Position numbers and translations under genes: made by a program. This document shows positions 151-55,904 of a DNA stretch of 63,819 nt, piece by piece. Source of the stretch: a virus (lineage: Duplodnaviria > Caudoviricetes); the IMG/VR virus record IMGVR_UViG_3300042465_004622, positions 1 through 63,819 of that record, one strand, 5' to 3'. The first letter of the stretch is position 1. Each line of letters starts with the position of its first letter. The notes under the pieces were generated by a model, which did no database searches, was not told the origin of the DNA, and saw nothing but the letters and a program-made list of their open reading frames with translations.

Positions 151-681
151 ATGGCTAAACCCTTAATGCCTCCCGAACAATGGGACGCTCTCAAAACTCT
201 CTCAATTAAAGGTCTCTCCGATTCAAAACTTGCGGAGGCTTTCGGCGTTAGCGTGGGGGCGATTCAATCCCGCCGATTCGATGACCCGGTATGGGCAGCC
301 GCTAAAAAAGACCAGATAACGCAGCGAGGCCGTCCCTCTCTTGCTGATGTTAAAGCGAGAGAGGAAGCCGCGAAGCAAGTAATAACAGTTTCAGGGGAGA
401 GTTTGGCGGAGATCGGCGAACAAAATTCGCTGCTCCTTGCTCGCTATGTAAGCCAGAAAATAAAAAACAGCGTAGAAAATGACCTCCTTCCAGAGCTGGA
501 CGATTGGAGTCCTTTTAAAACCGCTAGTGAGATCCTGCGCAAAGCCACCGGACAAGACCGCGATCAAGCCGCCGTGAGTGTTAACCTATTCGCCGGAGGC
601 CAGTTCTACGACACTGACGCCCCGACTTTTGAGGCTTCCGTTATTGAGACTGACACCGAAAATGGCCTCGATTTCTGCTGA
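151..681 (+). CDS. HTH DNA-binding protein, putative terminase small subunit
   Basis: N-terminal HTH-like segment (LSDSKLAEAFGVSVGAIQSRR), helical middle, first gene after the terminal repeat; ends ...GLDFC*. Confidence 0.55.
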   Translation: MAKPLMPPEQWDALKTLSIKGLSDSKLAEAFGVSVGAIQSRRFDDPVWAAAKKDQITQRGRPSLADVKAREEAAKQVITVSGESLAEIGEQNSLLLARYVSQKIKNSVENDLLPELDDWSPFKTASEILRKATGQDRDQAAVSVNLFAGGQFYDTDAPTFEASVIETDTENGLDFC

Positions 682-1029
682 TATGCACCTAAATCGTTGA
701 TACTCAACACTATTGCAACTTAACATTACGGTCGTTGTTTGTAGTTAATAAATGCCATAACGATTTCGGCATTCGACGAAGCTGGAAACGAGATCGAGAG
801 GCACTAGCCAAGCGGGCACAAGGGGCGCGTGTCCTGGTGCGCGTGGTGGCGGGTGGCTGGTGCCTGCTGCTAGCTGGCTGTAGCGAGGCCACGGGGGTAT
901 AGGTGCCGCCCCAGAAACCGCAGGCGCGGTAGCGTGAGGTAGGGCCGAGAAATTTTTTGTCTGAAAATACACCTTTACACTTTAAAGAAACACTTTGCAT
1001 AGATACAAACTACTTTTATAGTAGTGGGT

Positions 1030-1791
1030 ATGCCAAAAATAACAGACATCACAGGACAGACATTTAATCGTCTCACCGCAGTATCTCTGAACCAACCTTC
1101 GCATTTCAAGACGCGACCTGACGGGAGACAGGTCTTTCATTGTGCGACTTGGGATTGCACATGTAGCTGCGGAGGGATGAAGAAGAAAGTTCCTCTCTAC
1201 AACCTTCGTTACGGTTGGACGAAAAGTTGCGGGTGCCTCCAAGAAGAGCTAGCCATCGAAAACCGATCAGTTAGATACAAAGGAACTAGCGACACCCCAC
1301 CTTATGCTTTTTCCAAAGGAAAAGGAAACTTCTTTCGAGTATGGAAAGGTATTAAAGAACGATGCTATGTAAAAAGTCGGCATGATTACCCGAGGTATGG
1401 AGGGCGAGGAATCAAGATGCACCCAGACTGGAAAAGCAGCTACCGAGCTTTTGCTATGGCTGTAGGTCCAAGACCTTCGCTAGCGCACTCCATTGACAGG
1501 ATAGACACCAACAAAGACTATGAACCAGGAAACATCAAATGGAGTACCAACAAGGAGCAATCGAATAACAAGAGGACAAACGTCTGGCTACAGTGGAAAG
1601 GTCAATCAATCACGCTCATGCAAGTGGCGGAGATCGAGCAAGTGAACTACAACCAGCTACATATATTGTTGAGGAAAAGAAACCTATCTATAGAAGAAGC
1701 CGTAACTAAAGCCAAAACCTCAAAGCAGAAGTTTGATCCTCGAATAAACCGCTCGCGAGCGAAGCCAAAATACCCCGAAGATTTTTGCTGA
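1030..1791 (+). CDS. HNH-type (homing) endonuclease with N-terminal Cys-rich beta domain
   Basis: DITGQTFNRLT..WDCTCSCG..TKSCGC, WKGIKERC..YPRYGGRGIK, HSIDRIDTNKDYEPGNIKW; ends ...PEDFC*. Confidence 0.85.
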   Translation: MPKITDITGQTFNRLTAVSLNQPSHFKTRPDGRQVFHCATWDCTCSCGGMKKKVPLYNLRYGWTKSCGCLQEELAIENRSVRYKGTSDTPPYAFSKGKGNFFRVWKGIKERCYVKSRHDYPRYGGRGIKMHPDWKSSYRAFAMAVGPRPSLAHSIDRIDTNKDYEPGNIKWSTNKEQSNNKRTNVWLQWKGQSITLMQVAEIEQVNYNQLHILLRKRNLSIEEAVTKAKTSKQKFDPRINRSRAKPKYPEDFC

Positions 1792-2137: not shown

Positions 2138-2407
2138 ATGCCCGCCTTTCAGAAACACGACCTCACCAATCGCAAAATTGGCTACTGGACCGTGCTCCAT
2201 GAGAACAAGACCCACCGCAGCCAAGTTCAACGCACCTACGCACCTGGCTCCATCGCTCCGACCTTCTGGGTGTGCCAGTGCATCTGCGGCAAGATCAAAC
2301 CCGCAGTCCGTGGCTCAGTCCTGATGGATGGGCGATCCCAGTCCTGCGGATGCCAACGGAAACACACCCTCAAGCGACAAGCATCCCAGAACCAAGACTT
2401 TTGTTAA
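2138..2407 (+). CDS. Stand-alone copy of the Cys-rich N-terminal domain of phage HNH endonucleases
   Basis: DLTNRKIGYWTV..WVCQCICG..SQSCGC parallels the 1030..1791 N-terminus; no nuclease domain; ends ...NQDFC*. Confidence 0.75.
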   Translation: MPAFQKHDLTNRKIGYWTVLHENKTHRSQVQRTYAPGSIAPTFWVCQCICGKIKPAVRGSVLMDGRSQSCGCQRKHTLKRQASQNQDFC

Positions 2408-3157: not shown

Positions 3158-3217
3158 CACGGTCACTTTCAGAAAGAGTCTTGACTACGACTCTCAATAA
3201 GTCGAAGATTGGAAGCC

Positions 3218-5518
3218 ATGCCCACTTCTCCGCTTGTAGCTGACGCTAATCAAATCGCAGTATCCATACCTCCTGTCGTCTCACCAGATGACAACGAGAT
3301 TGTAAAGCGTCGGTTAAAGAGCGCGTCCGATCTGGCTAATCTTTATCAGAGCTTATTCAACGAAGATCTGGAATCGAGTCGGAAAAGATCCATGGTAGAT
3401 GCTGCGATTGGTGGAGAAGCTCCATACGATCCACGGAAAGAACGAAAACTAGGCACTCTGGGCCGTTCAAATATCAACTTTGGCATCCTGCTTCAAAATG
3501 TTGAGGAGGCCCAAATGCCTTTTTTCAGGCTCCTTGAGAGTCTTGACACCCTCTGCACGATGCCGCTGAAGTCTGACTTCGCCGACGAAGAGACACGGCA
3601 GATGTGGGAGCCAGCTATAGCTGAGGAGTTCTCGAAAGTCATCAAGAACTGGGCGTCGTTCCACCCTCGCTGGGGGCAACTCAGTCTGCTGTACGTCATC
3701 GACGGCATTGGTTTCACCTTATTTTCGGATGGTATCGACTGGAGATGGCAGGTCAAAGGGCTCCAGCATCTCAAGTTCCCTCGCGATGCCGAAGCCGATG
3801 TGAACTACCTCGACGTGGTCGCTATCGAGAGCAAGATGCGCCCCGACGAGCTTCTGCGGAAGGTTCAAGCCGAAGACAAGCTCCCAGAAGGCGACAAGCG
3901 CTACTGGAACAAGCAGGCAGTCATGGAGGCTGTGAAGCAGACCGCAGGATCGAGTTCGGTCAACACCAATAACCCCGAGGAGGTAGTGGACGCTTGGAAG
4001 AACAACGACATCTCCTTGAGTATGTCCGGCGTCACCGTCAAAGTGATCCACGGCTACGTCCGTGAAACAGACGGCACAGTCAGCCATTACGTATCCCGCT
4101 ACGACGGCGTCGGAGATTTCCTCTATGTCTGCGAAAGCAAGTTCACCGATGTCAGCCAACTGATGACCGCCTTCATCGGCAATGTCGGCACAAATGGAGA
4201 CTTCCATTCGATTCGCGGACTTGGCTACAAGATGTTTGCTCCCACGACCGGGCAGAACCGAGCCATCAACAAGTTCCTCGATGCCGCATTTACAGCAGCA
4301 ACGCCTCATCTCTCAACCGACAACGAGGACGCCAACGTCGAGCAGTCTATTGTTCAGATGGGGCCATACAACATCATGGCGAAAGGGACAGCGTTCCAAG
4401 AAACGAACCTGCCTGACTTCAGCCAGACCCTCATCCCAGCGCTTTCGACCCTCGGACAGCTTACCAGCTCACGGTCAGCAGCGTCTTCACCAGTCTCATC
4501 GAGCGACGTTTCCCGCACCCAGAAGACCAAGTTCCAAGTTCAGACGGAGACCGAGCAGAAAGGCGCTCTCCAGTCCAGCAGCTTCGTGAACTTCACCGTC
4601 GCGTGGCAACGCCACCTCCAGTGTGTGGCTCGACGCATCTGCCGCGAAGACTATCAAGCCACCGACCCCGGCGGCAAGGAAGCGTGGGAGTTCCGTAACC
4701 GACTTGTTCGTCGCGGAGTGCCGCTCGAAGCACTCAACCACATCGACTTCATCTCCATCGAAGCCAACACAGGTCTCGGGAAAGGCAGCTCGAACGAACG
4801 CCGCACTATCGTTGACGCGCTCAGTGAACGAGTTGGCCCTTTCCTCGACCAGAAAGGCCAGCAACTGCTCCAACGCTGGACCGTTTCCGCCTACGCAGGT
4901 CCGCAGATCGCCAAACTACTCGTTCCCGACCAGCCCGGTCTGCGCCCGCCAGTCGATGCGACGATTGCACAGATGGAGAACAGCCTCATGTCGATGGGCC
5001 AACCGCCATCATTCGAGCCGAACCAAGACCACGTGGTCCATCTCGACAAGCACCTCCAGAGGCTGTATGAGGTCAACACTCAGCTTACCGAGATGCAGAT
5101 CGAGCTGCGTCCAGCCATTGACCAGATGCAGCCTATCTGGGAGCACAGCATCAACGATCACCTTCCGATGGTGAACCAGATGAACCCTGACTACAAGCGG
5201 TTCAAAGAAGCACTGCAACAGCTTGGCGAACTCATCAAGAACTCCCGCAAGCACCTCGACGCCGAAGACAAACGGGCCGCAGAAGAGGCCGGGGAAGCCG
5301 AGACCGAGATGTATGGCGGCACGCAACCCGGCCTGTTCGCAGCCGCCGTCGATGCCAATGCCCGCGCAGCTCAGAAGGACATGGTCGATATTGAAAAGAC
5401 CCGCGCTCAGATCCAGATGGACCAGCAGCGTCACGCACAGGAGATGGCCGCTACCGACGTTCGCCTGGCTCTCGAAGTCGAAAAAGCTCGTCGCGAGAAA
5501 AGCAAACCACAGGCTTGA
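3218..5518 (+). CDS. Portal (head-tail connector) protein
   Basis: ~767 aa, helical with a coiled-coil C-terminus; lies upstream of scaffold and capsid. Confidence 0.7.
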   Translation: MPTSPLVADANQIAVSIPPVVSPDDNEIVKRRLKSASDLANLYQSLFNEDLESSRKRSMVDAAIGGEAPYDPRKERKLGTLGRSNINFGILLQNVEEAQMPFFRLLESLDTLCTMPLKSDFADEETRQMWEPAIAEEFSKVIKNWASFHPRWGQLSLLYVIDGIGFTLFSDGIDWRWQVKGLQHLKFPRDAEADVNYLDVVAIESKMRPDELLRKVQAEDKLPEGDKRYWNKQAVMEAVKQTAGSSSVNTNNPEEVVDAWKNNDISLSMSGVTVKVIHGYVRETDGTVSHYVSRYDGVGDFLYVCESKFTDVSQLMTAFIGNVGTNGDFHSIRGLGYKMFAPTTGQNRAINKFLDAAFTAATPHLSTDNEDANVEQSIVQMGPYNIMAKGTAFQETNLPDFSQTLIPALSTLGQLTSSRSAASSPVSSSDVSRTQKTKFQVQTETEQKGALQSSSFVNFTVAWQRHLQCVARRICREDYQATDPGGKEAWEFRNRLVRRGVPLEALNHIDFISIEANTGLGKGSSNERRTIVDALSERVGPFLDQKGQQLLQRWTVSAYAGPQIAKLLVPDQPGLRPPVDATIAQMENSLMSMGQPPSFEPNQDHVVHLDKHLQRLYEVNTQLTEMQIELRPAIDQMQPIWEHSINDHLPMVNQMNPDYKRFKEALQQLGELIKNSRKHLDAEDKRAAEEAGEAETEMYGGTQPGLFAAAVDANARAAQKDMVDIEKTRAQIQMDQQRHAQEMAATDVRLALEVEKARREKSKPQA

Positions 5519-38669: not shown

Positions 38670-38677
38670 TCGCTTTC

Positions 38678-38706: not shown

Positions 38707-38708
38707 TG

Positions 38709-40622: not shown

Positions 40623-40628
40623 AACGTG

Positions 40629-41736: not shown

Positions 41737-42024
41737 TTAAAAGGGTTCGTTTTCTTCTTTCTCCCGCTGACGTTTCAGGTCAGCAACATTTTTCTTTTTG
41801 TGGCACTTGTGACGACAGAGCAACTGGAGGTTTCCTTCTTGATGCTGGCGTCGATAGAAACTGATTCGTCTCGCTGTGTCTAATCGGTGGTGGGCGTCTC
41901 CTTGCGGTATGATGCAGTCGAAATCGAGATGTTTGTCGGTTCCGCACTCGACGCAGGCACCTCCTAGCTTGAACAAAAGTTCAAACTTAGCTTTTCTAGC
42001 CCACTCTTTCTGTCTCTTAGCCAT
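41737..42024 (-). CDS. Small HNH-like Zn-finger nuclease
   Basis: LGGACVECG..LDFDCI..NLQLLC..CH. Confidence 0.7.
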   Translation of the reverse strand: MAKRQKEWARKAKFELLFKLGGACVECGTDKHLDFDCIIPQGDAHHRLDTARRISFYRRQHQEGNLQLLCRHKCHKKKNVADLKRQREKEENEPF

Positions 42025-42274: not shown

Positions 42275-43708
42275 TTAGCAAAAGTCCTCTTCGTGTTTTA
42301 TGGTTAGGGGTTTTTTAGCAACCGTACCTTCGCGATACGATTCCAAAAGCTGTAGGGCGGTGAGTAGTCGATCTTCAGTGACCTTCTTCTCCTCAATCAC
42401 GGTAGCGACGGCGAAATCGACTGTGTCTGGGACCATGAGGCGGTACACCGTAACGACGGTGTCTTGTCCTCGTCGGTCGAGACGGGCTATCATCTGCTCG
42501 TAGTCCTCGCGGCTATAGGTGAGAGTCATCCAGACGAGCGTATTGCCTCCATGCTGAAGGTTGAGTCCGTGGCCGACACTCTTGGGATGCGCTACGAGGA
42601 CGGGGATTTTCTTGTTGTTCCAGTCTTCCAACAACTGTTTCTGTGAGGTCTGGTTCTTGGCGTCAGCGAAGAACCTAGCCTGTGGGAACGCTTTACGCAG
42701 TCGCTCCTGTTCGTGTCTGAAGGCACAAGCAACTAGGACAGGCCCATCTGTCTGCTTGATGATCTTCTCCAGAGCTTTGATCTTCAGGTCGTGGATGTCA
42801 TGCCACTTGCTGTCCGCATCGTAGATACTGCCTGACGTGAATTGAAGCAACTTGGCGACCAGAGCAGCAGCGTTCGGTGCTGTGATCTCAGCGGACTTCA
42901 GTTGCAGAACCAACTCCTTCTCAAACTCTTTGTAGTCGTGGACGAGGTTTGGAGACAGTTTTACCTCCACATCTTCAACCACAGTCTCAGGCAGATTGAG
43001 CCAATCTTTCGAGCGAAGTGTGAGAGTGATGTCAGCGAGACGGTTCTCGATGGCTTCGTTGGAGCCAGGCAGTTCCTTCCACTTGTAGCCTCCGTACCCT
43101 GTTTGCTTGAAATAGGTCTGCTTGAAGTGCTCGAAGGCTCGTCCAAGACGTTTGCCATTATCGACGAACCGAGCTTGAGCGAAGAGATCAAGGAGGGAGT
43201 TAGGCGCAGGGGTGCCCGTAAGCGCCCAGATTCTTTTGTGTTGATCATGTGGTATTTCTCGTCTATAAAGATTCGCCCTACGCCCCGTAGGGTTTTTCAG
43301 CTTAGTACTTTCATCTATGATTGTCAGGTCAAACGGGAGTCCTAGCCCCATGCTCCTCCGAGTCTTTACCAACTCTACGAGCTTGGGGATGGACTCGTAG
43401 TTGCAGACGTAAATGTGAGCTTGGTTGCGTAGGAATGCACGCTTGCCAGCCGGAGAGCGTAGATTCGCCACTTTCATCCACTTGAAGTCATCCCAGCGCT
43501 CGACCTCTAGAGGCCAAGTCAGGTTGGCTACACGCATAGGAGCCAGCACCAGAGCGCCGATGGTTTTCTTCTGATGGAACAGCTTGTTGAGAGCTGACAA
43601 GGTCGCGGCGGTCTTACCAATACCGACACCGACGAAGCCGAGAGCGTGGTCGTGTTCGAGCAGGTGCTTGGTGAGCAGATCCTGGGGTTCTGAGGAGGGG
43701 AACTTCAT
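42275..43708 (-). CDS. SNF2-family helicase
   Basis: GVGIGKT, IIDEST, LTGTP, GHGLNLQ, QMIARLDRRGQ; ends ...HEEDFC*. Confidence 0.92.
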   Translation of the reverse strand: MKFPSSEPQDLLTKHLLEHDHALGFVGVGIGKTAATLSALNKLFHQKKTIGALVLAPMRVANLTWPLEVERWDDFKWMKVANLRSPAGKRAFLRNQAHIYVCNYESIPKLVELVKTRRSMGLGLPFDLTIIDESTKLKNPTGRRANLYRREIPHDQHKRIWALTGTPAPNSLLDLFAQARFVDNGKRLGRAFEHFKQTYFKQTGYGGYKWKELPGSNEAIENRLADITLTLRSKDWLNLPETVVEDVEVKLSPNLVHDYKEFEKELVLQLKSAEITAPNAAALVAKLLQFTSGSIYDADSKWHDIHDLKIKALEKIIKQTDGPVLVACAFRHEQERLRKAFPQARFFADAKNQTSQKQLLEDWNNKKIPVLVAHPKSVGHGLNLQHGGNTLVWMTLTYSREDYEQMIARLDRRGQDTVVTVYRLMVPDTVDFAVATVIEEKKVTEDRLLTALQLLESYREGTVAKKPLTIKHEEDFC

Positions 43709-44022
43709 CAGCAGAAATCAGTTTTCTTTTCCAGCAGTTTCAGAATGAAGTATTGTCCATCCTCGACGTTGTCACACCAATCGGCGTCGCATTTCATGGA
43801 CCGCAGTTTTCTGATCTCATTCGTCTGTAGGGTAGTTGGTTCTTTACCAGCAGCCTTCACTTCGAGGAACCCGATCACGCCTTGCGGGGTGATGATCATC
43901 CGGTCTGGGACGGCTCGGCGTGCTGGGGAAGTGAACTTCAGATACAGGCAACCGTGCTTCTTGGCGAAGTCACCGATCTTGCGTTCGATGTCTTTTTCAA
44001 GTTGTGGGCCGATAGGTTTCAT
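43708..44022 (-). CDS. VRR-NUC domain nuclease
   Basis: EKDIE..KFTSP..VPDR..FLEVK..LQ; ends ...KTDFC*. Confidence 0.88.
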   Translation of the reverse strand: MKPIGPQLEKDIERKIGDFAKKHGCLYLKFTSPARRAVPDRMIITPQGVIGFLEVKAAGKEPTTLQTNEIRKLRSMKCDADWCDNVEDGQYFILKLLEKKTDFC

Positions 44023-44333
44023 TATTGGGCCTGCTCCTCCGTCGGTTTTTCTTTCTTAGATACCGATACGGACAAACTATCAGCCACTAATCTACCTATA
44101 GCGTTGCCTATAAGAGTGTTGTAGTTGGATTTATTTAGAAACCGATAGATGTGGTCGCGAAGCATCTCATCCAGAGTTTTCGTACAGAAATCGTCGATGT
44201 TCATCTCGTTTACTCTTCGGGTGAGTTCCTCGATTATCGTTTTCCTGAATAGCTCTACATCGCACGGGACAAAACGGTCGAGCATTTCGTTTGTGAGTAC
44301 TTCTGGCAATCTGACTTTAGTAGGTTGTTTCAT
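44022..44333 (-). CDS. Hypothetical protein bounded by ~35-bp direct repeats
   Basis: ORF from MKQPT; visibly more AT-rich than its neighbours. Confidence 0.6.
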   Translation of the reverse strand: MKQPTKVRLPEVLTNEMLDRFVPCDVELFRKTIIEELTRRVNEMNIDDFCTKTLDEMLRDHIYRFLNKSNYNTLIGNAIGRLVADSLSVSVSKKEKPTEEQAQ

Positions 44334-44364
44334 GGATGTTTTTTTAGTTGTGGGCCGATTGGTT

Positions 44365-44538
44365 TCATGGTCTTGCCTCCTCGACTCGGGCGTTCTTCTC
44401 CAGGCGTTCGAGCCACTCAGGAGCAGCGAGTCTGGCGAACACGTAGGACGCCAGAGCGAATGTGACTCCAAGCAGAAACATAGCTGGGAAGAACGACGCG
44501 ATAATGTCGTTGAGTTGTTGGCGGAGGTCGGGTTTCAC
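44365..44538 (-). CDS. 57-aa single-TM protein (not in the ORF track)
   Basis: GTG start overlaps the upstream TGA; MKPDLRQQLNDIIASFFPAMFLLGVTFALASYVFARLAAPEWLERLEKNARVEEARP*. Confidence 0.6.
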   Translation of the reverse strand: MKPDLRQQLNDIIASFFPAMFLLGVTFALASYVFARLAAPEWLERLEKNARVEEARP

Positions 44539-45201: not shown

Positions 45202-47400
45202 TTACTTCTGATAAAATTCAACGCTTCCGCCTTCGGCTGCTAGGGGCATACCTTCTCCCCAGTCGCGCAACTTCGTAAGACAACGAACGAAGTGATCAGG
45301 CGACCTAGTTTCAGACGGGTTGTATTCGGCCAAGTCTTCATCGTGAATGATCATCAGCGTCGGATAACCATTTGCTTCAGCTTCGATCAAACCTGAAGCC
45401 ATGAAATCGCCTGCGATACCCTGAATCTGGTTGTTGCAAAATATGCCAGGATGTATCTCGACTCGACCCCAGTGAACGGTCTTTGGAAGCTGAGAAAAGA
45501 TGGTGATAGCTTCGCCAAGTCGGACGCCTCGTATGTAGGGTTTCTTGGCTTTCTTCAAGTCTATCCCAAGTTCAGCTTGTTGCTTTTTAGCTTCGATCTG
45601 ATTCGGTGTCGGATTGAACAATTTCTTCATCACCTCTTCCTCGACTAGATCCCCATTCTCATCTTGAACAAAAGTGACTTCGACCCATCGTAGTTGAGGA
45701 ACAAGCTCAGGTTTTGGGTAGGCAATCTTCCGTCCGCTGGGAAGACGCAAGAACAGATATTTCATGCCTGCGGTGTGGGTGCTGAAGAAAGCGCAACCTT
45801 TGCCGAAAGGGAACATTTTACCGGAAGTTTTGATAGCTGCTTTGGAAGCACGCTCGATGTCTCCCCACATGCTGACAATCGAAGGATTGGCTTCACGCCA
45901 TGATTTGATGATTCCTGGAAGCTCTTTCTTGGTCAAACCCTGCTTGAGGGCACCCATTCTGACGAGTGCTCCGGTGCCGCCTGCGTAGCCACAGGCCAGC
46001 TCTCCGGCCTTCGCTTTCTGTCTCAGCGGGTGGTGCTTCCCGTGCTCCTTCTTGTAGTCATCGAAATCTTTCATGGTGACTCCGAACATCTGGCAAGCAG
46101 CGGCTTCGTAGATCTTACCATGTCCTTTGAATACTTCAAGTTTCCATTCCTCATTCGCCTGCCACGCGAGTAGTCGAGCTTCGATAGCTGAGTAATCAGC
46201 ACTGAGCATCGGTTTCCCATCTTGGATGAAATGACGAATACAGGATGCGATCACCTCCAAAGGCGGTCCATAATTCAATCGCAGCCAGTCCACATTACAT
46301 CCTTCGCAGATGTCTTTGTAGGCTTGTGGAGACAGACTCTCCATGTATGGCGCAGGCTTCTTGAAGTTCTGAGGCTGAACGAGAGAAGCGCTCCATCTTC
46401 CGGTGCCCGCTCCGTGATAGGTGTGCGTCCCTCGAACCCGGTTGTCATTAGGTCCGGCACAGTTGATCATTGTCGGTATCTTCTTGATCGAAGCGAAACT
46501 GATGTGCTTCTTGATCTTCAACGCAGCGCTCAACTCAGGACAATCGGTTTCAGCCTCTTCGTCAAAGTCTTCAAAGAACTCGTCGAGAGTAGCAGCTTGG
46601 AGGTTGTCGTGCTTGAATCCACGCTCTTTGAGCCAGACAAGCAACTTAGCTCCTTGAGAAGGTTTCAAACCTGTGAGAGCAAGAAACTCACGCTCCAAGG
46701 TTTCTGTTTCCTCGTTCACCAGTTTCTCCGCCTTCCTCAGAGCGTCGAGGTTCACGGGAAAGCCACGGCAGTTGATCTCTATATCGAGTAGGAAAGTTTG
46801 GAGCGGGAATCCTGTAAGCTCGAAGTCTTTGAGGGTCTTGTGGATCTCTTGCTCGACACGAACATCCTGGATGCAGTAGTCGCAGAACTCTCTGAAAGCC
46901 TCCGGCTCATCAACAGGGTCAATGAAATCCCCTTTCTTTTTCCCGACGTTCTGGGGCACTGAGAATTTACGGATCAGACCTTTCCCCTTACTGTCCTTCA
47001 GGTTGGTCAGTTTGAGAGTCTCCGCCAGCTTCTCCAAGCTAGCAGGCAGCGCGGCACGTCGTCCCATAGCTGCGGTGCAGCGCCATTGGTGGTGCGCAGG
47101 TGGTTTGAAGCCAGTGGTCTTTTCCATGAGTGCGTCGAGACAAGCGATCTCGAATTGCGCATTGTGGGCATAAACGACGGAGTCTGGGCGTGAAAGTTTA
47201 CACAACAAGTTGCCGACATACCCTGAGTGCGTCGTCATAAAATATGGATCATACTTGGTCCAGATCCACGGTTCCTTCTCTCCTTCAGCAATCGCGATGC
47301 ACAGGATCTCGGTGCTTGGGTCTCGGGCATAACGGTGAGCGCCGACCTTCTTCAGGTCAGCTCGGGACCGTGTTTCGATGTCAACGTGGTAGGTGGGCAT
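45202..47400 (-). CDS. polA: Family A DNA polymerase with 3'-5' exonuclease domain
   Basis: VDIETRS, AHNAQFE, GTGRWS, motif A DYSAIE, motif B RQKAKAGELACGY, motif C IHDE. Confidence 0.93.
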   Translation of the reverse strand: MPTYHVDIETRSRADLKKVGAHRYARDPSTEILCIAIAEGEKEPWIWTKYDPYFMTTHSGYVGNLLCKLSRPDSVVYAHNAQFEIACLDALMEKTTGFKPPAHHQWRCTAAMGRRAALPASLEKLAETLKLTNLKDSKGKGLIRKFSVPQNVGKKKGDFIDPVDEPEAFREFCDYCIQDVRVEQEIHKTLKDFELTGFPLQTFLLDIEINCRGFPVNLDALRKAEKLVNEETETLEREFLALTGLKPSQGAKLLVWLKERGFKHDNLQAATLDEFFEDFDEEAETDCPELSAALKIKKHISFASIKKIPTMINCAGPNDNRVRGTHTYHGAGTGRWSASLVQPQNFKKPAPYMESLSPQAYKDICEGCNVDWLRLNYGPPLEVIASCIRHFIQDGKPMLSADYSAIEARLLAWQANEEWKLEVFKGHGKIYEAAACQMFGVTMKDFDDYKKEHGKHHPLRQKAKAGELACGYAGGTGALVRMGALKQGLTKKELPGIIKSWREANPSIVSMWGDIERASKAAIKTSGKMFPFGKGCAFFSTHTAGMKYLFLRLPSGRKIAYPKPELVPQLRWVEVTFVQDENGDLVEEEVMKKLFNPTPNQIEAKKQQAELGIDLKKAKKPYIRGVRLGEAITIFSQLPKTVHWGRVEIHPGIFCNNQIQGIAGDFMASGLIEAEANGYPTLMIIHDEDLAEYNPSETRSPDHFVRCLTKLRDWGEGMPLAAEGGSVEFYQK

Positions 47401-47867: not shown

Positions 47868-48434
47868 TTAGACATCGTCTCCTGAGTCTTCGGACTCGTC
47901 GGAGAACACGTCTTCAGCGCGGACACGGGTTCCGCCACCGCTGAGAGGCTCGCCGTCCTTGAGGAACTGGATCGCCTCGAAACCTGCGAACAGGCCGCGA
48001 CCACCGTTCTCCGTGCCGTAGAAACGCACGACGACCTTGGCGTAGCAGCCAGAGTAGGGCTTGTTGTCTTCCGCAGCGAGTGGCGTGCGACCGTCTGTAT
48101 CGACGATGACAGGGCGATTCTTGTTGCTGGCGGAGACGACTTTCATGCCTGCGTAAGCAGGTTTGATCTCGTCGTCCTTGTCAGTGTGGGTGTTGCCATC
48201 AGAAACACAGAAGCGTTTTGGGTCTTTCCAGGTAAGTGGGTATTTCTTCCACTTGTCGAGGGAGACGTGCTTCACAGCAGCGTCGATGGATGCAATGGAG
48301 GCTTTGTCCTTGGGATCGACGATGCAGGTGATTTTGTACTTGGGATTGCCTTGGTTGAGTTGTCCCTCGAACGGCTTGAAGCAGTGGAGGTAATCGACGC
48401 GGCATTTAATGATGGCGGTTGCTGGATCAGACAT
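47868..48434 (-). CDS. Phage single-stranded DNA-binding protein (DUF2815-like)
   Basis: PKY..SASN..RP..YSGCY..GLFAGFEAIQFLKDGEPLSGG; acidic tail ending DDV. Confidence 0.85.
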   Translation of the reverse strand: MSDPATAIIKCRVDYLHCFKPFEGQLNQGNPKYKITCIVDPKDKASIASIDAAVKHVSLDKWKKYPLTWKDPKRFCVSDGNTHTDKDDEIKPAYAGMKVVSASNKNRPVIVDTDGRTPLAAEDNKPYSGCYAKVVVRFYGTENGGRGLFAGFEAIQFLKDGEPLSGGGTRVRAEDVFSDESEDSGDDV

Positions 48435-49280: not shown

Positions 49281-50498
49281 TTAGCAAAAGTCGTCGTTTG
49301 GGTAAGCGGCTGAAACTCGGGCTTGAGCGATGGTGAAATAGGCTTTGTCCATCTCCATGCCGATGAAGTCGAATCCCTCTGCTCCGCAGGCTTTGCCTGT
49401 GCTTCCACTACCCATCCAAGGATCGAGCACCGTTCCTTCTGGAGGTGTGATGAGTCGGCAGAGGTAACGCATGAGGTCTGTTGGTTTCACTGTTGGGTGA
49501 TTATTCTTTACTGACTTGATGCTGTTTGTTCCGCTGGCAGCTTTATACTCTGTAACTCCACGCTTCAGTTGTGCTTGAGCTTGGTTGGATGCAGCTATGA
49601 AAGAATCATCAAGACCATCGCAGCCGTCGTTGCGGTCTGTTGAGTTGGTCTTGGCGCAGTAGAAAAAGCGGGCTGATGAGCCGCCATTGTCGTCGTGCCT
49701 ATATGTTACGTGCGGCGTTTCCCTGCCCTTAGCAACGCTTTTGAACTCTCCGTTGTTCCTTGGGGTGGATTTGCTTGAGGCCGTTTGCGGAAACAACCCA
49801 ACCACCTCGTCGCTTCCGTCGTGGATCAGGTTCGCAGGCCAGCGTCCTTGGGGTTGTTGGAACTCGCCTGCTCCGCCTTCGCGTTTGTATCTCCAATTCT
49901 CCGCGCCGTCATGTCTTTCGGAGCCGTCCTTTGCGTAGGCACCGCCGTTCAGGTTCTCTGTCGTACCTACTCGGCAAGCATCCACGTTAATCGCTCCCGT
50001 GTGCCACTTGAGCACGTTGTCCGCGACGGTGCCTTCGAGCGGCTTCCGCGCCAGCGTGATTGGTTCCAGTGCGGGTTTTAGTGCCGTGCCCCAGCCTTCC
50101 CACTCTTCTTCGAGTTTGTGCGATTTGGGGAACCCAGAACCGTACACCCATGCAACAAGGTCGCGAATCTCGAATCCTGCCAAGCGTATGCCGAGCGCCA
50201 TCAAGTCCTGTGTCCGTGTCCCAGCGAAAGCAAGAACGTGGCCTCCGGGTTTCAGGACACGGAACACTTCTCTCCATTGCACAGGTTGTGGAACGAAGTT
50301 GTCCCATGCTTTACCCATGAATCCGCTCTTGCTTTTTACGTCGTGGTGCCCGGTCTCCATCCAGTCGCGCAGCATGGCGAGTGCATCTGGCTCTTTGCCA
50401 AGTCCGTATGGTGGGTCTGTTACCACCGCGTCAACGCTGTTGTCTGGCAGCTTTTCCAAAAGCTCTAAGTTGTTTCCCTTTAGTAGTTGGTAAGTCAT
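49281..50498 (-). CDS. Beta-class N6A/N4C DNA methyltransferase
   Basis: VVTDPPY, RVLKPGG, HPTVKP, VLDPWMGSGST; ends ...NDDFC*. Confidence 0.92.
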   Translation of the reverse strand: MTYQLLKGNNLELLEKLPDNSVDAVVTDPPYGLGKEPDALAMLRDWMETGHHDVKSKSGFMGKAWDNFVPQPVQWREVFRVLKPGGHVLAFAGTRTQDLMALGIRLAGFEIRDLVAWVYGSGFPKSHKLEEEWEGWGTALKPALEPITLARKPLEGTVADNVLKWHTGAINVDACRVGTTENLNGGAYAKDGSERHDGAENWRYKREGGAGEFQQPQGRWPANLIHDGSDEVVGLFPQTASSKSTPRNNGEFKSVAKGRETPHVTYRHDDNGGSSARFFYCAKTNSTDRNDGCDGLDDSFIAASNQAQAQLKRGVTEYKAASGTNSIKSVKNNHPTVKPTDLMRYLCRLITPPEGTVLDPWMGSGSTGKACGAEGFDFIGMEMDKAYFTIAQARVSAAYPNDDFC

Positions 50499-50500
50499 AA

Positions 50501-51739
50501 TCAGCAAAAGTCCTCCGCTCCGGTTTCATCAGAAAACACGTTCGCCAGATTCTCCGAGCCATAAACAGGGCGTGGATCGTCAACGGAAACGAGCGTCGGC
50601 CCGCCCTCCGGCTTGACGATGAGTTTCTGAATTTCTCCCCATTCAGCTTTCTCGAAGTCGTGCTCGAACTCGGAAACTTGCGTCGGGGTGATCAGATCCT
50701 CAGTTATGATGTCCTCGCGTTTCAGCTTGGTCAGCAGCTTCTCTTTGGCGAGGTCGGGGTAGCCCCATTTTCGGTGTCCGCCTTTGCCCTTGACCAGCTT
50801 CAGGCCGGGTAGTGGTTTGCCGTTGAGAGCCATCGACGTTGCGTATTTCTCAGCGGAGGATAACCACTTTTTGATGTCGTCGATCTTGAGCACGATTTTG
50901 GAGAGAACGTCATCTGAGATGCTGTCAGCTTTCGGCAGCTTCGGCACTTCTCCGGTCGTGATTGTCTCCAGTGGTGTGTCGTCGAGGAGCCACTTTGTCC
51001 GGGCCTCGCAGAACGACTCGCAGGGGCAGAACTGACAGGTCTTGGTGCCTGGGCGGAACTCCAATGTGAGAGCTTTGGCTTGGATGTCCTCAGCAGGGCC
51101 GAGAACTCGGTCATCAGTGAACTGGACAAGCTCTTTGTAGTCAATGGTCCAAGTGCTCTGCTTATCACCTTGCCGAACGCGAGGTTGGTAGATGTGCATG
51201 TGAACCGCAGGCATCGGCTTGTTGGCATACCATTGCTTCATCGTGAGGTCTAACTGTTGGATCATCGACCGTGCATAGATCGCCATCTGTAGGTTCTCGA
51301 AAGCCGAGACTGCCACGCCCTGACCATATTTGAAGTCGGCAATGTGAACCCCGTCGTCGGCGATGCAGCAGAAGTCCACGAAGCCGTTACGGGCAGGCAT
51401 GTAGAACAGACTGACTTTCAACTCGCTCCACCATCTGTTACCCATGCCTGTGCGTTTGATGTGATCAGTGGCACCCGGAGCTTTCTTGTCGAGACAGAAA
51501 TCAACGAACGCCTGCGCGTGCTTCTTCATGTCCGGCGTGGCTTTGTCCGACAGCTTGGTCTTCTTGAAGAGTGCTTCAACGGCGGAGTGCGCGAACGTCC
51601 CTTCAACCGAGAACTCGGTGTCCTGCGGCGGTATGCGGTTGGCGTTGGCTACAACGTAGTGAGGTTGGGCTGTACACGAACTCCACGTACTCGCGGAACT
51701 GGCATTCAGGTTTAACTTTAAGTATCGGGATGTGCTCAT
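50501..51739 (-). CDS. Cas4-like PD-(D/E)XK exonuclease (DUF2800-like)
   Basis: EGTFAH, GFVD, ADFKYG, NLQMAIYA, HIYQPR, CQFCP..C; ends ...AEDFC*. Confidence 0.88.
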   Translation of the reverse strand: MSTSRYLKLNLNASSASTWSSCTAQPHYVVANANRIPPQDTEFSVEGTFAHSAVEALFKKTKLSDKATPDMKKHAQAFVDFCLDKKAPGATDHIKRTGMGNRWWSELKVSLFYMPARNGFVDFCCIADDGVHIADFKYGQGVAVSAFENLQMAIYARSMIQQLDLTMKQWYANKPMPAVHMHIYQPRVRQGDKQSTWTIDYKELVQFTDDRVLGPAEDIQAKALTLEFRPGTKTCQFCPCESFCEARTKWLLDDTPLETITTGEVPKLPKADSISDDVLSKIVLKIDDIKKWLSSAEKYATSMALNGKPLPGLKLVKGKGGHRKWGYPDLAKEKLLTKLKREDIITEDLITPTQVSEFEHDFEKAEWGEIQKLIVKPEGGPTLVSVDDPRPVYGSENLANVFSDETGAEDFC

Positions 51740-51799: not shown

Positions 51800-52474
51800 T
51801 TAGACTTCCTTCTGGTCCTCTTCGTTGGCGGCGAGATACTCACGGATCTTGGCCTCCATCTGACGCAACATAGTTGGGTCAGACATCTCGCGAGTCATCT
51901 TCTCGAAGCCGAGTGTGGTGTTGCGGAAATCAACAAGCAGCTTGGTGTACTTGGTGTCCTTGAGGGGCTTCATCAGATCAACGAGTTCAGAGCCGGACAG
52001 GTAAGGCTCCTCTTCGACAACTGGTTCTGGCGTTGGCTCGGGAGCAGGTGCTGCCTCAGCTTTTGCCTTGGGGCCGCGCTTCTTAGGTTCTGGTTTGTCT
52101 TCTGTTTCGGCGGGTGCCGATGTAGGTTCGCTGACTGGAGCAGAGCAACCGCCTTTGGCAGCGGTGTTGCGGTCGATAGCCTCGATCAGGGGTTTGACGA
52201 GGGTTTCAAAGATGTCGTTAAGCAGGGTATTCATAGGTTTGTCTGTATTTGTTTTTTGTTGTGGGTTTTCTGTCGCAGGTTGTGCTGCTACTGGAAATTG
52301 TTTTGTGTGTTCTGCATAGGCAGTCCAATAAGCGTCGGAAAACTCGCCGCCACGTTCGTTTGCGACATGGATGAGTAGAAACACGCTTTCTTTGTCGCGA
52401 AAGTCGTCACTCTCCCATTTCGCTTGGGACAGGCACTTGCGGTAAAATTCAATAGTGAAGTCGGCGGGTTGCAT
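51800..52474 (-). CDS. Hypothetical protein with a Pro/Glu-rich linker (possible second start at MNTLL)
   Basis: TAATG coupling to the upstream stop; directly upstream of the DUF2800-like gene. Confidence 0.6.
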   Translation of the reverse strand: MQPADFTIEFYRKCLSQAKWESDDFRDKESVFLLIHVANERGGEFSDAYWTAYAEHTKQFPVAAQPATENPQQKTNTDKPMNTLLNDIFETLVKPLIEAIDRNTAAKGGCSAPVSEPTSAPAETEDKPEPKKRGPKAKAEAAPAPEPTPEPVVEEEPYLSGSELVDLMKPLKDTKYTKLLVDFRNTTLGFEKMTREMSDPTMLRQMEAKIREYLAANEEDQKEV

Positions 52475-53271
52475 TAGCAAAAGTCCTCCTCGTCGTTTTC
52501 AAGGTTCACGTATTCCGTAGAGGATTCCGTCTTCTTCAAGCAGTTGGTAGCCTTCATCTTCAGCGTTGTCTGGCCCGATACAGTCGCAGTCGGCGTAATG
52601 CTCCGCGTGAACAGGGCACCAAGGTTCTCCGCAGCATTCACATTCTGGAAGTTCATGGGCGAAGACAATACGAACTCGCTCCACTGTTTTGCCATCGCGT
52701 TTGCGATGCCTTGAAAAGTCGCTGATCTGATTTTCCATCGGTCTTTTGAGGGTGGCAGGTTATACCAAGTTGGAAGCGAGTTTCCGCCTTTTGTGACGTG
52801 GCGAGTTCCTTTTCCAACCAAGTTTGTTGGTGTTATTGATGGCAGGTTTTTGAGCCAAAGGCACGTTGTTTTGGTAGCTTCATGCCCGTGCTCGTATGGC
52901 TGAATAATACAGTCAGGCTTCCTCCACACTGACGACATGATGCCTACTGGGTTTTCGATAGCAATTCGCGGGATTGGAGCGTTTGCTAATGCCATGAAGA
53001 AGTCGATGCCTTCTTGCTGCCTGCCGTCCGCTCGCTTTGCTGCAAAGTGCTTGGCTCCGCTGACGGCTAGATGTGTGCATGGTGGGAATGCAACCATCAT
53101 ATCCCATGAGTCATTCAGTAGTTGGAGAACATCGCCTTGAATATGAAACTCGCTACCGTCATCTGCTGGCAATAAATCGCAACTCCAGGCGTCGTGTCCA
53201 AGCTCTCTAAATGCTGAACGGACGGCTCCACTGTATTCACAAGCTATTAAAACTTTAAGTGGTTTATTCAA
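52474..53271 (-). CDS. Compact C5-cytosine DNA methyltransferase-like protein with a C-terminal extension
   Basis: KVLIACEYSG, AFPPCTHL (catalytic PC), IAIENP, KTTCLW, RSATFQGIANAMAKQW; TTG start overlapping the primase TGA; ends ...ENDEEDFC*. Confidence 0.8.
   Translation of the reverse strand: MNKPLKVLIACEYSGAVRSAFRELGHDAWSCDLLPADDGSEFHIQGDVLQLLNDSWDMMVAFPPCTHLAVSGAKHFAAKRADGRQQEGIDFFMALANAPIPRIAIENPVGIMSSVWRKPDCIIQPYEHGHEATKTTCLWLKNLPSITPTNLVGKGTRHVTKGGNSLPTWYNLPPSKDRWKIRSATFQGIANAMAKQWSEFVLSSPMNFQNVNAAENLGALFTRSITPTATVSGQTTLKMKATNCLKKTESSTEYVNLENDEEDFC
52499..52684 (-). CDS. Small Cys/His-rich protein nested in an alternative frame of the MTase C-terminus
   Basis: VERVRIVFAHELPECECCGEPWCPVHAEHYADCDCIGP..; GTG start where MTase homology ends. 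Confidence 0.5.
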   Translation of the reverse strand: MERVRIVFAHELPECECCGEPWCPVHAEHYADCDCIGPDNAEDEGYQLLEEDGILYGIREP

Positions 53272-55904
53272 CAAAAATCCTCCTCGTCGTTTTCTGGTTT
53301 CGGTTCTTTTCCTTCCAGTCGATCTCTTGCGATCTGGAATACTTCTGCGGGCATCTTGCCGTCGAACTTGCCCTGCTTGATCCACAGGTATCCTCTCATG
53401 CCGTCGATCATCGGTCGGCCCGGAACTCGCAGAAAGTGCTCTTCTCTGAGCAACTTACCAATACGTTGCGGACTCTCTTTGACCCCTTCCATGGTGAGTG
53501 CTCCTGAGAGGCTAGGCTCCCAGATCATGTCGTCTCTAAGCAGCGGTGACTCGGACTCGCGGATGGTGCGACGGATCGCTGAGGTGGCCTCGTCTGCGGA
53601 GTCTTCGATCATCTCTTCAAGATACTTGGTCTTCGGAGCGCGACCGTTGGCGTTGAAGCTCGGACTGATTTCCCACGTCTCGAAGAAGCTGCGGAGTCCG
53701 CCTCCAAGGTTAGCCAGCATCCCGAACATACGGTCGAAGTATCCTGGGCCGAGAGCAGCTACCTGTTCTTCAGTCTGAAGTTTGAGCTTCAGGACGAAGT
53801 AGCGTCGGCTACCTGACATCACCGCGAGCGCGTCGTGATGGTTGGTGAACATGATGTAGTTGGTGATGTTCCGACATTTCTTGGTGTCGGCATGTTTCCG
53901 GTTCACTGGGACGAAGTCGTCTGTGACCAGATCCTTCAACTTGTTCATCACGTCATGGCGGTTGTGTCCCGAGATGCGGACTTCACCGATGACCGTAATC
54001 TGAGATCCGACAGCCCATTCATTCCAGTTGCCTCGGATAGCTTCATTGTTGACGTACATCACGTTCTCTTCCCCGAGCAGCGTTCCAAGCAGGAGAGCCA
54101 GGAACGTCTTTCCGCAGCCTTCCGCTCCTTGGAAAAGGGGTGCCCAACGACATTTTTTACCGGGGTGCTGGACGTGGTAAGCGATGTAGTCGAGCACGAC
54201 TCTCTGGTATTCCGTCTCGATGATCAGATTGCGCAGATGCTCTTGGAAAATGGCTCCGGCTGCTTCAGCGTCGGACGCTTTGGGTTTTACGTGGCAAGCC
54301 CGGTAAGTGTTCACAAGTTTGAGACCGTTTGCGTCTTCGCTGTAAATTTCTTTGGGTGAGGTTGGATCGTAGGTCGTGTCATCGACCACTGGGCACTCGA
54401 TCTTGTTGAGCAGATATTGGTGAGGGAGAATCGGCGGGACATACAGAGCGGCATCGGACGTGTCTTTTCCCTGGGATTCGAGTTGCTCTGCGGTGTTGAG
54501 CAGGAAGCGAGAATACTCAGCATTGAAGGCTTCTTTCGTACGCCATTGGTGGGACGCTGGACGGAAAAACTGCTCGCGACAGGCGACGTAATACCACCCT
54601 TTCGTCCAAGCAGGGTCTTTCTTGATGGACTCTTCCGGTGTTTTTGACTTGAGTTGCGCTTTACGGAGCTTGTCGAGGTCTTGACGGAGATCTCCGAGGC
54701 GTCCTTTTTCCCCGATCTTGGTGAGTGCTCGCAGAATGGAGTTCAGCAGTGTGCCTTCCTCGACGTGAGTCAAAATAGGCAACTGAGCGATCTTTTCCAA
54801 CGCGATGTGCGTCATCTCATGGAACGTCTTGGCGGTGTCGTTGATCCAATCGTTGACGACTTTGAAGCAGTCTTCTTTGACCTTCCCTGCGTTCCAGCCT
54901 GCGTCCGCCGCACGTTTGATGAGGGTACGGATGGTGACGGGGACTCGACCTCTCGGGGTCGTATAGACTTGGTTCCACTTCGCCAGGGTTCCGTCTGGGC
55001 CAGGATAGCCATCACCTTCGCCAGACCACTTATCGAACAGTTCGTAGGCTGCGTCTTCCTGCTCAGTATCTGAGTATTGATGACGGAGTGCGCAGCATAC
55101 TTCAAACCACTCTTGATAGCCGCAGTTCGGTGACAAACTGTTGAGTGCCTCCACGACATCCTTGAACTCAACCCCCATCAGCGGTGCTCGGAGGTATTCG
55201 AGTCCGTCGTCTTCACTGTAAGTCTTTTTGCTCGACTTTTCGGGATTGATCGTCGCGTCTTGGATGTCGGAGAGTGTGAAGGCGTCACCCTTCAGGAAGC
55301 TGACCACCATGGGGTGCTCTGAATCAGGATCTTGATCCAAGAACAAGCTCGGGCAGATCATCGGCTGGTTCGGAGTCAACGACTCGCGGGTGATATTCGC
55401 CAGTCCAATTCTCGTCGCGATAGTCTTAACGGCAGCAGGGTAAGCCTCCAACGTGATGTTGTCTGCGTCCACCACGATCCGCATACGAGGCTTGGCAGGT
55501 GTCGAGCTTGCCGTCGTATAGGCTGCGAAGTTGAAGGGCCGCATGGCCTTCAGCAGGATGTCTGGGTTCGCCAGAAATGGGGCCGCAGGGCTAGTGCCAC
55601 CTTTCTCGGTGTCTAAGTCGAGGAAAAGCAGGTTACAGCAGTTGGCTTTGTCGGCGAACTGACGCTCGCGACTGGTCTCATCGTCTGAATAAACGCAGGC
55701 AACGAGGTAGGTCGTGTCTTTTGCAGACAGCCTCGCAGCTTTACCTTCCGACGTGTCAGAAGGTAGTTCATTGTATTCTTTCCGTGTCAGTTGCAGAGGG
55801 ACAGCAGTGTCGAGATGCTTGCGCACAAGCTCTGCGAACGTGCGGGCAGGTGATGCACGAACACGGTTGCTCTTGACTGAGCCACCATAATAATATCTGG
55901 GCAT
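53268..55904 (-). CDS. Primase-helicase (AEP-like N-terminus, PriCT-2-like domain, SF3-type NTPase)
   Basis: FLDLD, YTTASS..PRMRI, YQEWFEVCCAL..FDKWS, Walker A GAEGCGKT, FTNH, RRYFV; ends ...ENDEEDFC*. Confidence 0.9.
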   Translation of the reverse strand: MPRYYYGGSVKSNRVRASPARTFAELVRKHLDTAVPLQLTRKEYNELPSDTSEGKAARLSAKDTTYLVACVYSDDETSRERQFADKANCCNLLFLDLDTEKGGTSPAAPFLANPDILLKAMRPFNFAAYTTASSTPAKPRMRIVVDADNITLEAYPAAVKTIATRIGLANITRESLTPNQPMICPSLFLDQDPDSEHPMVVSFLKGDAFTLSDIQDATINPEKSSKKTYSEDDGLEYLRAPLMGVEFKDVVEALNSLSPNCGYQEWFEVCCALRHQYSDTEQEDAAYELFDKWSGEGDGYPGPDGTLAKWNQVYTTPRGRVPVTIRTLIKRAADAGWNAGKVKEDCFKVVNDWINDTAKTFHEMTHIALEKIAQLPILTHVEEGTLLNSILRALTKIGEKGRLGDLRQDLDKLRKAQLKSKTPEESIKKDPAWTKGWYYVACREQFFRPASHQWRTKEAFNAEYSRFLLNTAEQLESQGKDTSDAALYVPPILPHQYLLNKIECPVVDDTTYDPTSPKEIYSEDANGLKLVNTYRACHVKPKASDAEAAGAIFQEHLRNLIIETEYQRVVLDYIAYHVQHPGKKCRWAPLFQGAEGCGKTFLALLLGTLLGEENVMYVNNEAIRGNWNEWAVGSQITVIGEVRISGHNRHDVMNKLKDLVTDDFVPVNRKHADTKKCRNITNYIMFTNHHDALAVMSGSRRYFVLKLKLQTEEQVAALGPGYFDRMFGMLANLGGGLRSFFETWEISPSFNANGRAPKTKYLEEMIEDSADEATSAIRRTIRESESPLLRDDMIWEPSLSGALTMEGVKESPQRIGKLLREEHFLRVPGRPMIDGMRGYLWIKQGKFDGKMPAEVFQIARDRLEGKEPKPENDEEDFC

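Follow-up and report, generated by a model that had tools for sequence, protein, structure and literature searches.

The stretch of DNA considered here, IMG/VR virus record IMGVR_UViG_3300042465_004622 (hereafter the window, meaning the whole stretch at its full length), is a complete phage record of 63,819 bp in which a set of proteins end in the same three residues, Asp-Phe-Cys (DFC). Its plus-strand arm, from about 1 to 34.6 kb, consists mostly of structural genes that could not be named, and the other arm, on the minus strand, carries the replication and early genes. The DFC ending is present on nine of the 80 open reading frames (ORFs) of a strand-aware list, three of the genes lying on the plus strand and six on the minus strand. 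The ORF lists are greedy longest-ORF calls made with no gene finder, the identity of a tail depending on the stop codon alone. All nine had been picked out in a first-pass annotation of the same sequence, whose start at 1030 for one of them is a later in-frame start of the gene given below as 1024..1791 (+). That annotation had proposed a check for enrichment: the amino acid composition predicts 0.0019 DFC endings, against the nine observed (Poisson P ~7e-31), and a chance origin is rejected on these figures. In 5000 trials with tripeptides drawn at random positions, the maximum sharing was one in 2484 trials, two in 2495, and three in 21. The whole proteome contains 12 DFC tripeptides, of which nine are terminal and three internal.

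The first of the tagged genes on the plus strand (151..681) encodes a helix-turn-helix protein of 176 residues in the TerS position, which ends ..ENGLDFC, with the DFC codons at 670-678. This protein has no match in Pfam, PHROG or NCBIfam, and its TerS-like label comes from gene position and from language-model look-alikes (viral clusters with HTH_23 and Terminase_5 on 16-40% of their members), which are to be read as a lead only; the endings of its orthologues are PDFC, ADFC and SDIC. An HNH endonuclease (1024..1791, +; phrog_374, E 6.5e-53, the match ending at residue 245 of 255) ends ..YPEDFC, and its orthologue in G005 ends ..YSEDFC (relatives were taken from IMG/VR, G and L numbers denoting relative genomes and loci). 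The third gene (2138..2407, +) encodes a fragment-like protein of 89 residues that resembles the N-terminal part of the phrog_374 HNH proteins (E 2.1e-10) and ends ..QNQDFC; its orthologues end ..QDQDFC and, in G001, ..SLDDV.

On the minus strand, the tail is carried by an SNF2-family helicase of 477 residues (42275..43708; Pfam SNF2-rel_dom and Helicase_C), which ends ..HEEDFC with the DFC codons at 42278-42286. All eight full-length homologues with at least 79% identity also end in DFC, and at 67-73% identity the endings are WI, WV, WL, WC or FC. The small endonuclease in the VRR-NUC position (43708..44022; phrog_93, E 9.4e-24) ends ..KKTDFC, with IDFC, TEFC and REFC among its orthologues and GEWV, DNFI, QEI and CEEI in other clades. 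An N6/N4 DNA methyltransferase (49281..50507; PF01555, E 1e-28, the match ending at residue 395 of 408) ends ..PNDDFC, a peptide specified in relatives by three different DNA strings, and its clade-B orthologues end ..EEAWI and ..PEEWI. The DUF2800 or PD-(D/E)XK (Cas4-like) exonuclease (50501..51739; PF10926, E 6e-58, the profile ending at residue 391 of 412) ends ..GAEDFC; DFC is found in 33 of its 35 homologues with at least 63% identity, and successively lower identity bands bring, stepwise, DIC, EWI, DWL, DEV/EEI and DWV. A DNA methyltransferase of phrog_757 (52474..53385) and the primase/SF3-type helicase (PriCT_2 plus DUF5906; 53268..55904) both end ..ENDEEDFC, and the true start of this methyltransferase is likely a TTG at 53271 that overlaps the primase stop (TGTTGA). 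Orthologues of the primase end in EEDFC, EEEFC and DEDIC, and those of other clades in GDWI, ESFV and DEFV. Two near variants that had also been reported are both present on the minus strand, a protein of 96 residues (56169..56459) that ends ..EDDFV, matches no family in Pfam, PHROG or NCBIfam and has orthologues ending in DDFV, GDFA and EDFA, and one of 97 residues (58328..58621) that ends ..DPDFA, with PDFA, TDFA and EDFA among its orthologues.

An ORF of 149 residues at 44022-44471 (-) contains ..NIDDFC internally, at residues 91-96, with another 53 residues after it. It has no relatives among the fetched loci; at the equivalent position L026 has an HNH gene that ends ..GIDDFC, and the internal DFC of the window may be an old terminus that was read through or fused.

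The claim that the tag is limited to DNA-acting proteins agrees with the finding that eight of the nine tagged proteins (clients) have a recognisable DNA-enzyme match in Pfam or PHROG. With regard to individual labels, HNH, SNF2, exonuclease, N6_N4 methyltransferase and primase were matched, the C5 type given to the phrog_757 methyltransferase was not shown, and the TerS-like protein lacks a family match. DFC is absent from every ORF between 3209 and 34614, none of which could be named, as well as from the family-A polymerase PolA (45202-47400) and the gp2.5-like protein that binds single-stranded DNA (SSB; 47868-48434). To this extent the tag is indeed missing from the proteins said to lack it; the TerL among them is an unverified label, as the ORF so called (3209-5518) has no PHROG match. 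Asp-Phe is present in all nine tails, with Phe penultimate and followed by Cys (T7 tails end directly in DF), and the last 10 residues carry a net charge of -2 to -5 in six clients and of 0 to +1 in three.

The tail is an extension appended beyond the folded domains. The Pfam and PHROG matches of the clients stop 6-44 residues before the C-terminus, and in the SNF2 alignment ..LESYR marks the end of the conserved domain and is the stopping point of untagged relatives, the tagged proteins adding a variable linker of 15-20 residues and then E-[DENS]-[FW]-[CIV]. An acidic extension past the folded domain, by which a T7-type tail is recognised, is thus what these proteins possess.

Selection acts on the peptide of this tail and not on its DNA. 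Among the nine tails Asp is encoded by GAT in four and GAC in five, Phe by TTC in two and TTT in seven, and Cys by TGC in seven and TGT in two, and the stop codon is TGA in five and TAA in four. The longest exact DNA string common to tail regions is 17 nucleotides (nt) and is confined to the primase and phrog_757 methyltransferase pair; other pairs share no more than 15 nt, and the sequence 3' of the nine tails shows no conservation. A repeated DNA element as the source of the tails is rejected on the basis of this limited sharing. Orthologous tails have the same peptide encoded by two to three different DNA strings, and in relatives exchanges between Asp and Glu and between Phe and Ile occur while the pattern of the tail persists. 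Selection at the level of the peptide, as originally proposed, is therefore borne out by mixed codons, by the presence of the genes on both strands, and by orthologous tails with differing DNA.

There is no near DNA match to the window among GenBank phages, and the identity of the closest relatives in bacterial genomes is 26-31%. Among the relatives from IMG/VR, both of the outcomes that the first-pass annotation had suggested looking for, retention of DFC and a joint switch to another tail, are encountered: [DE][FI]C is kept, or several proteins change together to DIC, [DE]WI, DWV, EEI, MLG, NLD[DE]Y or DVI. In close relatives the same genes, and additional ones, encode [DE]FC, G005 having seven DFC and one EFC. 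In G001, a complete genome with ~50-69% protein identity, the exonuclease, the primase and the ORF in the TerS position all end in DIC, and the protein that ends in DFA in the window has likewise become DIA (..DDIA). In clades B and C (~55-75% identity) the exonuclease, helicase, methyltransferases and primase end in [DE]WI or EWV, and MLG is the ending of five to six proteins in the distant 61.6-kb genome G002, namely three DNA methyltransferases, a replication-initiation-like protein, a small protein annotated as a ligase, and one without assignment. NLD[DE]Y is common to the SSB, the endonuclease and a methyltransferase in L062-64, and in other relatives ..DVI, ..D[ED]LL or ..LDEF is common to the SSB, exonuclease, endonuclease, methyltransferase or primase. 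In a control set of 44 distant loci that contain this gene module, there is none in which three or more ORFs have a terminal tripeptide in common. For the SNF2 helicase, the last two residues among the best 120 homologues are WI (23), WG (19), FC (12) and WV (5), along with WS, WD, WL, WA, WK and WM, and one homologue ends ..DWC, intermediate between DFC and DWI. The acidic and aromatic residues form the constant part of the tail, and the last residue would therefore be the mark of the lineage.

The SNF2 helicase is enlarged to 843-860 residues in two relatives (L004, 15182-17713; L025, 5490-8072), compared with 477 here, and a one-piece alignment covers residues 129-477 only. Two SNF2 homologues of ~790 residues from the databases carry PF13403, and one of them PF07591 and PF14890 as well, which we take to be Hint/intein families; this suggests that the enlarged helicases contain an intein.

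The SSB, named in the first-pass annotation among the proteins that lack the tag, does not stand outside this system. The gp2.5-like (DUF2815) SSB (47868..48434, -; phrog_112, E 2.6e-40), whose PDB relatives are 4jg2, 5odj (Enc34 ORF6) and 4klk, ends ..DVFSDESEDSGDDV (..GDDV), and a protein of 226 residues for which no family was found (51800..52480, -) ends ..EEDQKEV. These two proteins carry a second type of tail, acidic plus Val, that co-varies, both changing from V to AA in a sub-clade: where both genes were recovered, three genomes pair ..DDV with ..KEV and three pair ..DAA with ..KDAA. A fourth SSB of the AA type, 95% identical to that of the window, belongs to a locus that yielded no partner gene. 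A segment, VFSDE[ST], is common to the SSB and the DUF2800 exonuclease and lies upstream of their differing endings. In the window the SSB and the primase-helicase differ in their endings (GDDV versus EEDFC); the same ending on both is found in L061-L064, L081, JS26 and Enc34.

On sequence evidence, the tail habit runs through cultured Casjensviridae and Casjensviridae-like phages as well, with other endings, and the description of the tag as phage-specific was in this sense too narrow. In Serratia phage JS26 EL is the ending of nine of 83 annotated coding sequences (CDS) and acidic-FL that of two more, the tagged proteins including TerS, a helicase, PolA, SSB, primase, a methyltransferase, a recombination exonuclease and a PAPS-reductase-like protein; the accessible part of the preprint on the JS26 transposon work makes no mention of C-termini. 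Phage Enc34 has [DE]EV on six of 31 examined CDS (primase, ORF3, ORF5, SSB ORF6, TerS and ORF51) and [DE]I on three more, ORF5 being, by gene order, in the position of the DUF2800 exonuclease. In Burkholderia phage AH2 the TerS ends ..DPAEGL and the SSB ..DPADGL. The TerS proteins of AH2, JS26 and Enc34 each have the tail of their own phage. Three phages whose hosts (Hafnia, Serratia and Providencia) are closely related Enterobacterales account for as many different endings, DEV, EL and [DE]M.

What might such tails do? By analogy with characterised phage proteins, they are probably, though not assuredly, acidic docking tails of the T7 type that bind a common receptor, with the number of clients widened to about a dozen. 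This proposal is favoured because a gp2.5-like SSB and a family-A polymerase are both present and because the tails keep the Asp-Phe of T7. DFC would represent, in this phage, a short docking motif at the C-terminus composed of an acidic run, an anchor that is aromatic or a large hydrophobic residue (Phe here, Trp or Ile in relatives) and a lineage-specific last residue, added as a flexible stretch to proteins of DNA metabolism that are otherwise unrelated. All of the tails would plug into one shared receptor site, and through docking the primase-helicase, the SNF2 helicase, nucleases, HNH enzymes, methyltransferases and the TerS-like protein would be delivered to phage DNA as it replicates. 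That endings switch jointly argues for a receptor that is specific and co-evolves with the tails, and such a receptor would presumably be encoded by the phage; the three endings among phages of related Enterobacterales favour this over a conserved host receptor. The idea of an address tag thus describes the behaviour of the tail well, given a peptide under selection, on DNA-acting proteins, with endings that switch jointly.

The family-A polymerase, PolA (45202..47400, -; phrog_17, E 8e-97), is itself untagged, ending ..VEFYQK, and is untagged in all 20 distinct PolA sequences of relatives. By analogy with T7 gp5 it may be the receptor, albeit a tentative choice; the gp2.5-like SSB is a less probable one, on a par with some other phage protein such as the primase-helicase, and a host protein appears less probable still. 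No PDB relative of PolA was found by phmmer. The PolA gene is also mosaic: in g5639, g3191 and g866 the primases are 98-99% identical and the PolA proteins 61-66%, and g5639 shares an 87% allele with a more distant phage.

Docking on one receptor has to contend with a number of observations that speak against it. The PolA alleles of DFC phages are a mosaic (58-100% identity) that does not track the tail code, and the switch between the V and AA endings is tracked by one of 746 PolA columns versus 99 of 879 primase columns. This covariation scan set four V-type against four AA-type genomes and its outcome is mostly lineage (ORF 38709-40622 gave 34 columns), so it implies only that PolA does not set the V/AA code. 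In JS26, moreover, PolA itself is tagged (..VEYEL). The bodies of the SSBs do not, as far as their sequences go, track the tail code either, that of G001 being 70% identical to clade-B SSBs despite the Cys-type tails of the G001 phage. The Enc34 SSB crystal, in the available part of its description, has a groove that holds the proximal part of a neighbour's tail, and the last 11 residues are disordered, from which it follows that the terminal code does not lie in the neighbour's groove. No receptor stands out among the phage proteins compared. Switching is also incomplete, as in G001 the helicase and endonuclease end in DFC or EFC beside the DIC of other proteins, and in G003/L017 two proteins with WI stand next to a single one with DFC; uniformity is weak, too, in Salvo, Kokobel1 and the Salmonella relative SD-13_S19. 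Phe is encoded by TTT in seven of the nine tails, compared with 31% genome-wide and six of 19 internal Phe-Cys pairs (binomial P 0.005), which hints at some constraint at the nucleotide level. Finally, the last 27 nt of the phrog_757 methyltransferase and of the primase are identical at 24 positions, including the 17-nt exact run, and encode the eight-residue tail that the two have in common. Because of this match, and because two close relatives lack the methyltransferase gene between the primase and the ORF that follows, the methyltransferase is probably a cassette that was inserted at the primase tail and duplicated it; not all nine tails are therefore independent.

An alternative to docking is that the tail is a shared C-terminal degron or stability signal by which a protease or adaptor of the host or phage sets the lifetime of the DNA enzymes, with endings that change along with the host. 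Tags of a few C-terminal residues, such as the ..LAA of ssrA, are the means by which bacterial proteases select their substrates, the non-polar end being read by ClpX or ClpA. A change of host would produce joint switching as well, and the SSB and ORF 51800-52480 of the sub-clade do end in ..DAA. An ssrA-like ..LAA end is nevertheless not what the DFC proteins have: their tails are strongly acidic and end in Cys, and ..DAA is restricted to the sub-clade SSB and ORF-51800 proteins. The clients are both late (TerS-like, HNH) and early proteins, along with an SSB that is needed in bulk, three endings occur in phages of related Enterobacterales, and the closest characterised tails, those of T7 gp2.5 and gp4, are docking tails. 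A degron is on these grounds unlikely.

It could also be argued, with slightly less plausibility, that there is no shared receptor, the acidic tail being a mimic of DNA that folds back on the DNA-binding site of its own protein, and the uniformity of the endings arising from the copying of tails as cassettes were inserted. The T7 gp2.5 tail is said to compete with single-stranded DNA for the same surface, and the Enc34 SSB without its tail binds double-stranded DNA, according to the portion of that work at hand. The duplicated tail of the primase and the phrog_757 methyltransferase is a case of copying. DNA mimicry with copied tails accounts for this one pair only, however, as the other tail regions have so little DNA in common and differ upstream of DFC, and orthologues keep the peptide while their codons drift; nor does self-binding by nine unrelated folds explain an identical last tripeptide or joint switching.

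A signal at the nucleotide level at the 3' ends of the genes (GAYTTYTGYTRA), acting either as a recombination linker in the exchange of modules or in translation termination and coupling, is very improbable. It would draw on the TTT excess, on the tight coupling of the genes, in which stops overlap or abut the next start, and on the mosaic nature of the region, where PolA alleles have been swapped and one cassette was inserted at a tail. Against this, the tails vary in their wobble positions and stop codons, no conservation is seen in the sequence downstream of them, and the WI, MLG, EL and DEV lineages use unrelated codons for the same acidic-hydrophobic peptide logic; in our judgement 9-12 nt with variable wobble would also be scant homology for recombination. 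The suggestion that the terminal Cys is a handle for covalent or other chemistry (disulfide, thioester, metal ligand, lipidation) fares worst and is scarcely credible, for although Cys is invariant in the 39 distinct [DE][FI]C tail peptides of this clade, other lineages place I, V, L, G, S, A, D or K at the homologous position of the same proteins, two ORFs of the window itself, 56169-56459 and 58328-58621, have DFV and DFA, and the SNF2 homologue that ends ..DWC stands between DFC and DWI.

If the tails dock on one receptor, the phage would possess a clamp-less ‘tool-belt’ in which a few C-terminal residues decide which enzymes reach replicating DNA, those so gated including DNA-protecting methyltransferases and selfish HNH genes. 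A bolder and rather doubtful extension of docking is that the endings are lineage-specific ‘zip codes’, each wiring all DNA enzymes, from replication and recombination to methylation, homing and packaging, to its lineage's own hub through a private pair of tail and receptor. The codes would then diversify (DFC, DIC, DWI, DWV, FWG, MLG, EL, DEV) and shut out co-infecting relatives, satellites, and incoming cassettes that lack the local tail, and mobile methyltransferase and HNH genes would for this reason always carry the resident ending. Lineage-specific endings would amount to natural orthogonal peptide-receptor pairs. The tail also offers a marker, readable from sequence alone, of DNA-acting proteins among phage ORFs without assigned function, which in the window are 56169-56459, 58328-58621 and 51800-52480. 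Cultured systems open to testing are at hand in JS26, a phage of Serratia sp. ATCC 39006, and in Enc34, for which the SSB structure has been solved.

Several other genes of the window deserve mention. In the presumed structural arm (3209-34614, +), which includes an ORF of 2982 residues at 25079-34027 (outside the scanned set), six of the nine proteins scanned (10 were scanned in all) have no PHROG match. A weak TerL-like match (phrog_2, E 4.5e-6) is found in the minus-strand arm, on a protein of 637 residues (38709-40622, -) that is conserved in clades A-C and has Gly/Trp-rich ends, ..GSGWGE, ..AWGD and ..FAWGEDFH. A minus-strand cluster at 36650-41731 comprises a MazG-like pyrophosphatase (36650-37036), an SAM methyltransferase (38097-38669), a phrog_3704 protein (40629-41261) and a DUF6378 protein (41258-41731), and may be a nucleotide or DNA-modification module.

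Short C-terminal peptides that organise DNA metabolism have precedents. The C-terminal tip of bacterial SSB, ..DDDIPF, recruits many genome-maintenance proteins, and is comparable in that a short acidic-hydrophobic peptide serves as the currency of a DNA-metabolism network. The topology is inverted, however, since there one tail-bearing hub meets many pockets, whereas here many proteins bear the tail. Pro-Phe is present in none of the nine tails, and with an SSB that ends ..GDDV the motif of the bacterial tip is lacking. The only ..PF ending in the window belongs to an HNH-like protein of 95 residues (41737-42024, -; phrog_4234), which ends ..EENEPF; its orthologues have ..[EQ]PF in 16 of 16 distinct sequences regardless of whether the genome uses the DFC or the WI code. 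This tail looks like a mimic of the bacterial tip (..IPF), and the protein may for that reason be directed to a partner in the host and not to the hub of the phage.

A second precedent is found in PIP-box and clamp-binding motifs, Qxx[LIM]xx[FY][FY] or QL[SD]LF, of the clients of PCNA, the beta clamp and T4 gp45, which include polymerases, nucleases, methyltransferases and helicases. Here, as with the DFC proteins, many DNA enzymes use one short, often C-terminal motif and one hub, in the manner of a tool-belt. Neither motif occurs in the tails as read by eye, the tails being acidic, and a scan of 57 window proteins against PHROGs, Pfam or NCBIfam brought up no clamp family.

Closer to the window is the DUF2815 SSB of Enc34 (5odj/5odk), which belongs to the same family as the SSB at 47868-48434 and has an acidic tail, in a phage that shares ..DEV across proteins. 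It differs in what its crystal reveals, the end of the tail being disordered there; the accessible text of the structure paper treats the tail as a feature of the SSB and does not mention an ending shared by other proteins.

Both T7 and bacterial SSB provide known examples of the acidic docking tail as a kind. What appears not to have been described is the breadth of clients, an ending that changes jointly with the lineage, and methyltransferases, homing-type nucleases and TerS as clients: a search of full-text literature, with supplementary files outside its reach, returned work on T7, SSB and Enc34 and no account of an ending common to many phage proteins. The comparisons draw on the available portions of PMC5686142, PMC12339929, PMC13697223 and bioRxiv 10.64898/2026.05.20.726333.

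It is to T7 that the window invites the closest comparison. In the accessible parts of the T7 work, gp4 and gp2.5 bind, through their acidic tails, a front basic patch and a patch of the thioredoxin-binding domain on the polymerase gp5, the tails being in mutual competition (PMC12339929; bioRxiv 10.64898/2026.05.20.726333). The resemblance includes an acidic flexible extension with Asp before Phe (..GDF and ..TDF in T7, ..[DE]DF-C here), non-homologous proteins of one phage with the same ending, a tail on the primase-helicase, and the presence of a gp2.5-like SSB and a family-A polymerase. The likeness to gp2.5 and gp4 that had been drawn at the outset was well chosen, DFC being the DF anchor of T7 with one residue added. 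The differences are also instructive. Phe is terminal in T7 and penultimate here, where it is capped by a lineage-specific residue; the SSB of this phage ends ..DDV, and its primase is of the PriCT_2/DUF5906 type and not gp4-like. Among 25 CDS of T7 that were checked, the DF ending occurs on gp2.5 (..EDGDF) and gp4 (..NDTDF) only, as opposed to nine to 11 clients here, which include methyltransferases, HNH and PD-(D/E)XK nucleases, an SNF2 helicase and the TerS-like protein. A textbook mechanism of T7 would, if the tails indeed dock on a common receptor, be widened from two clients to a dozen.

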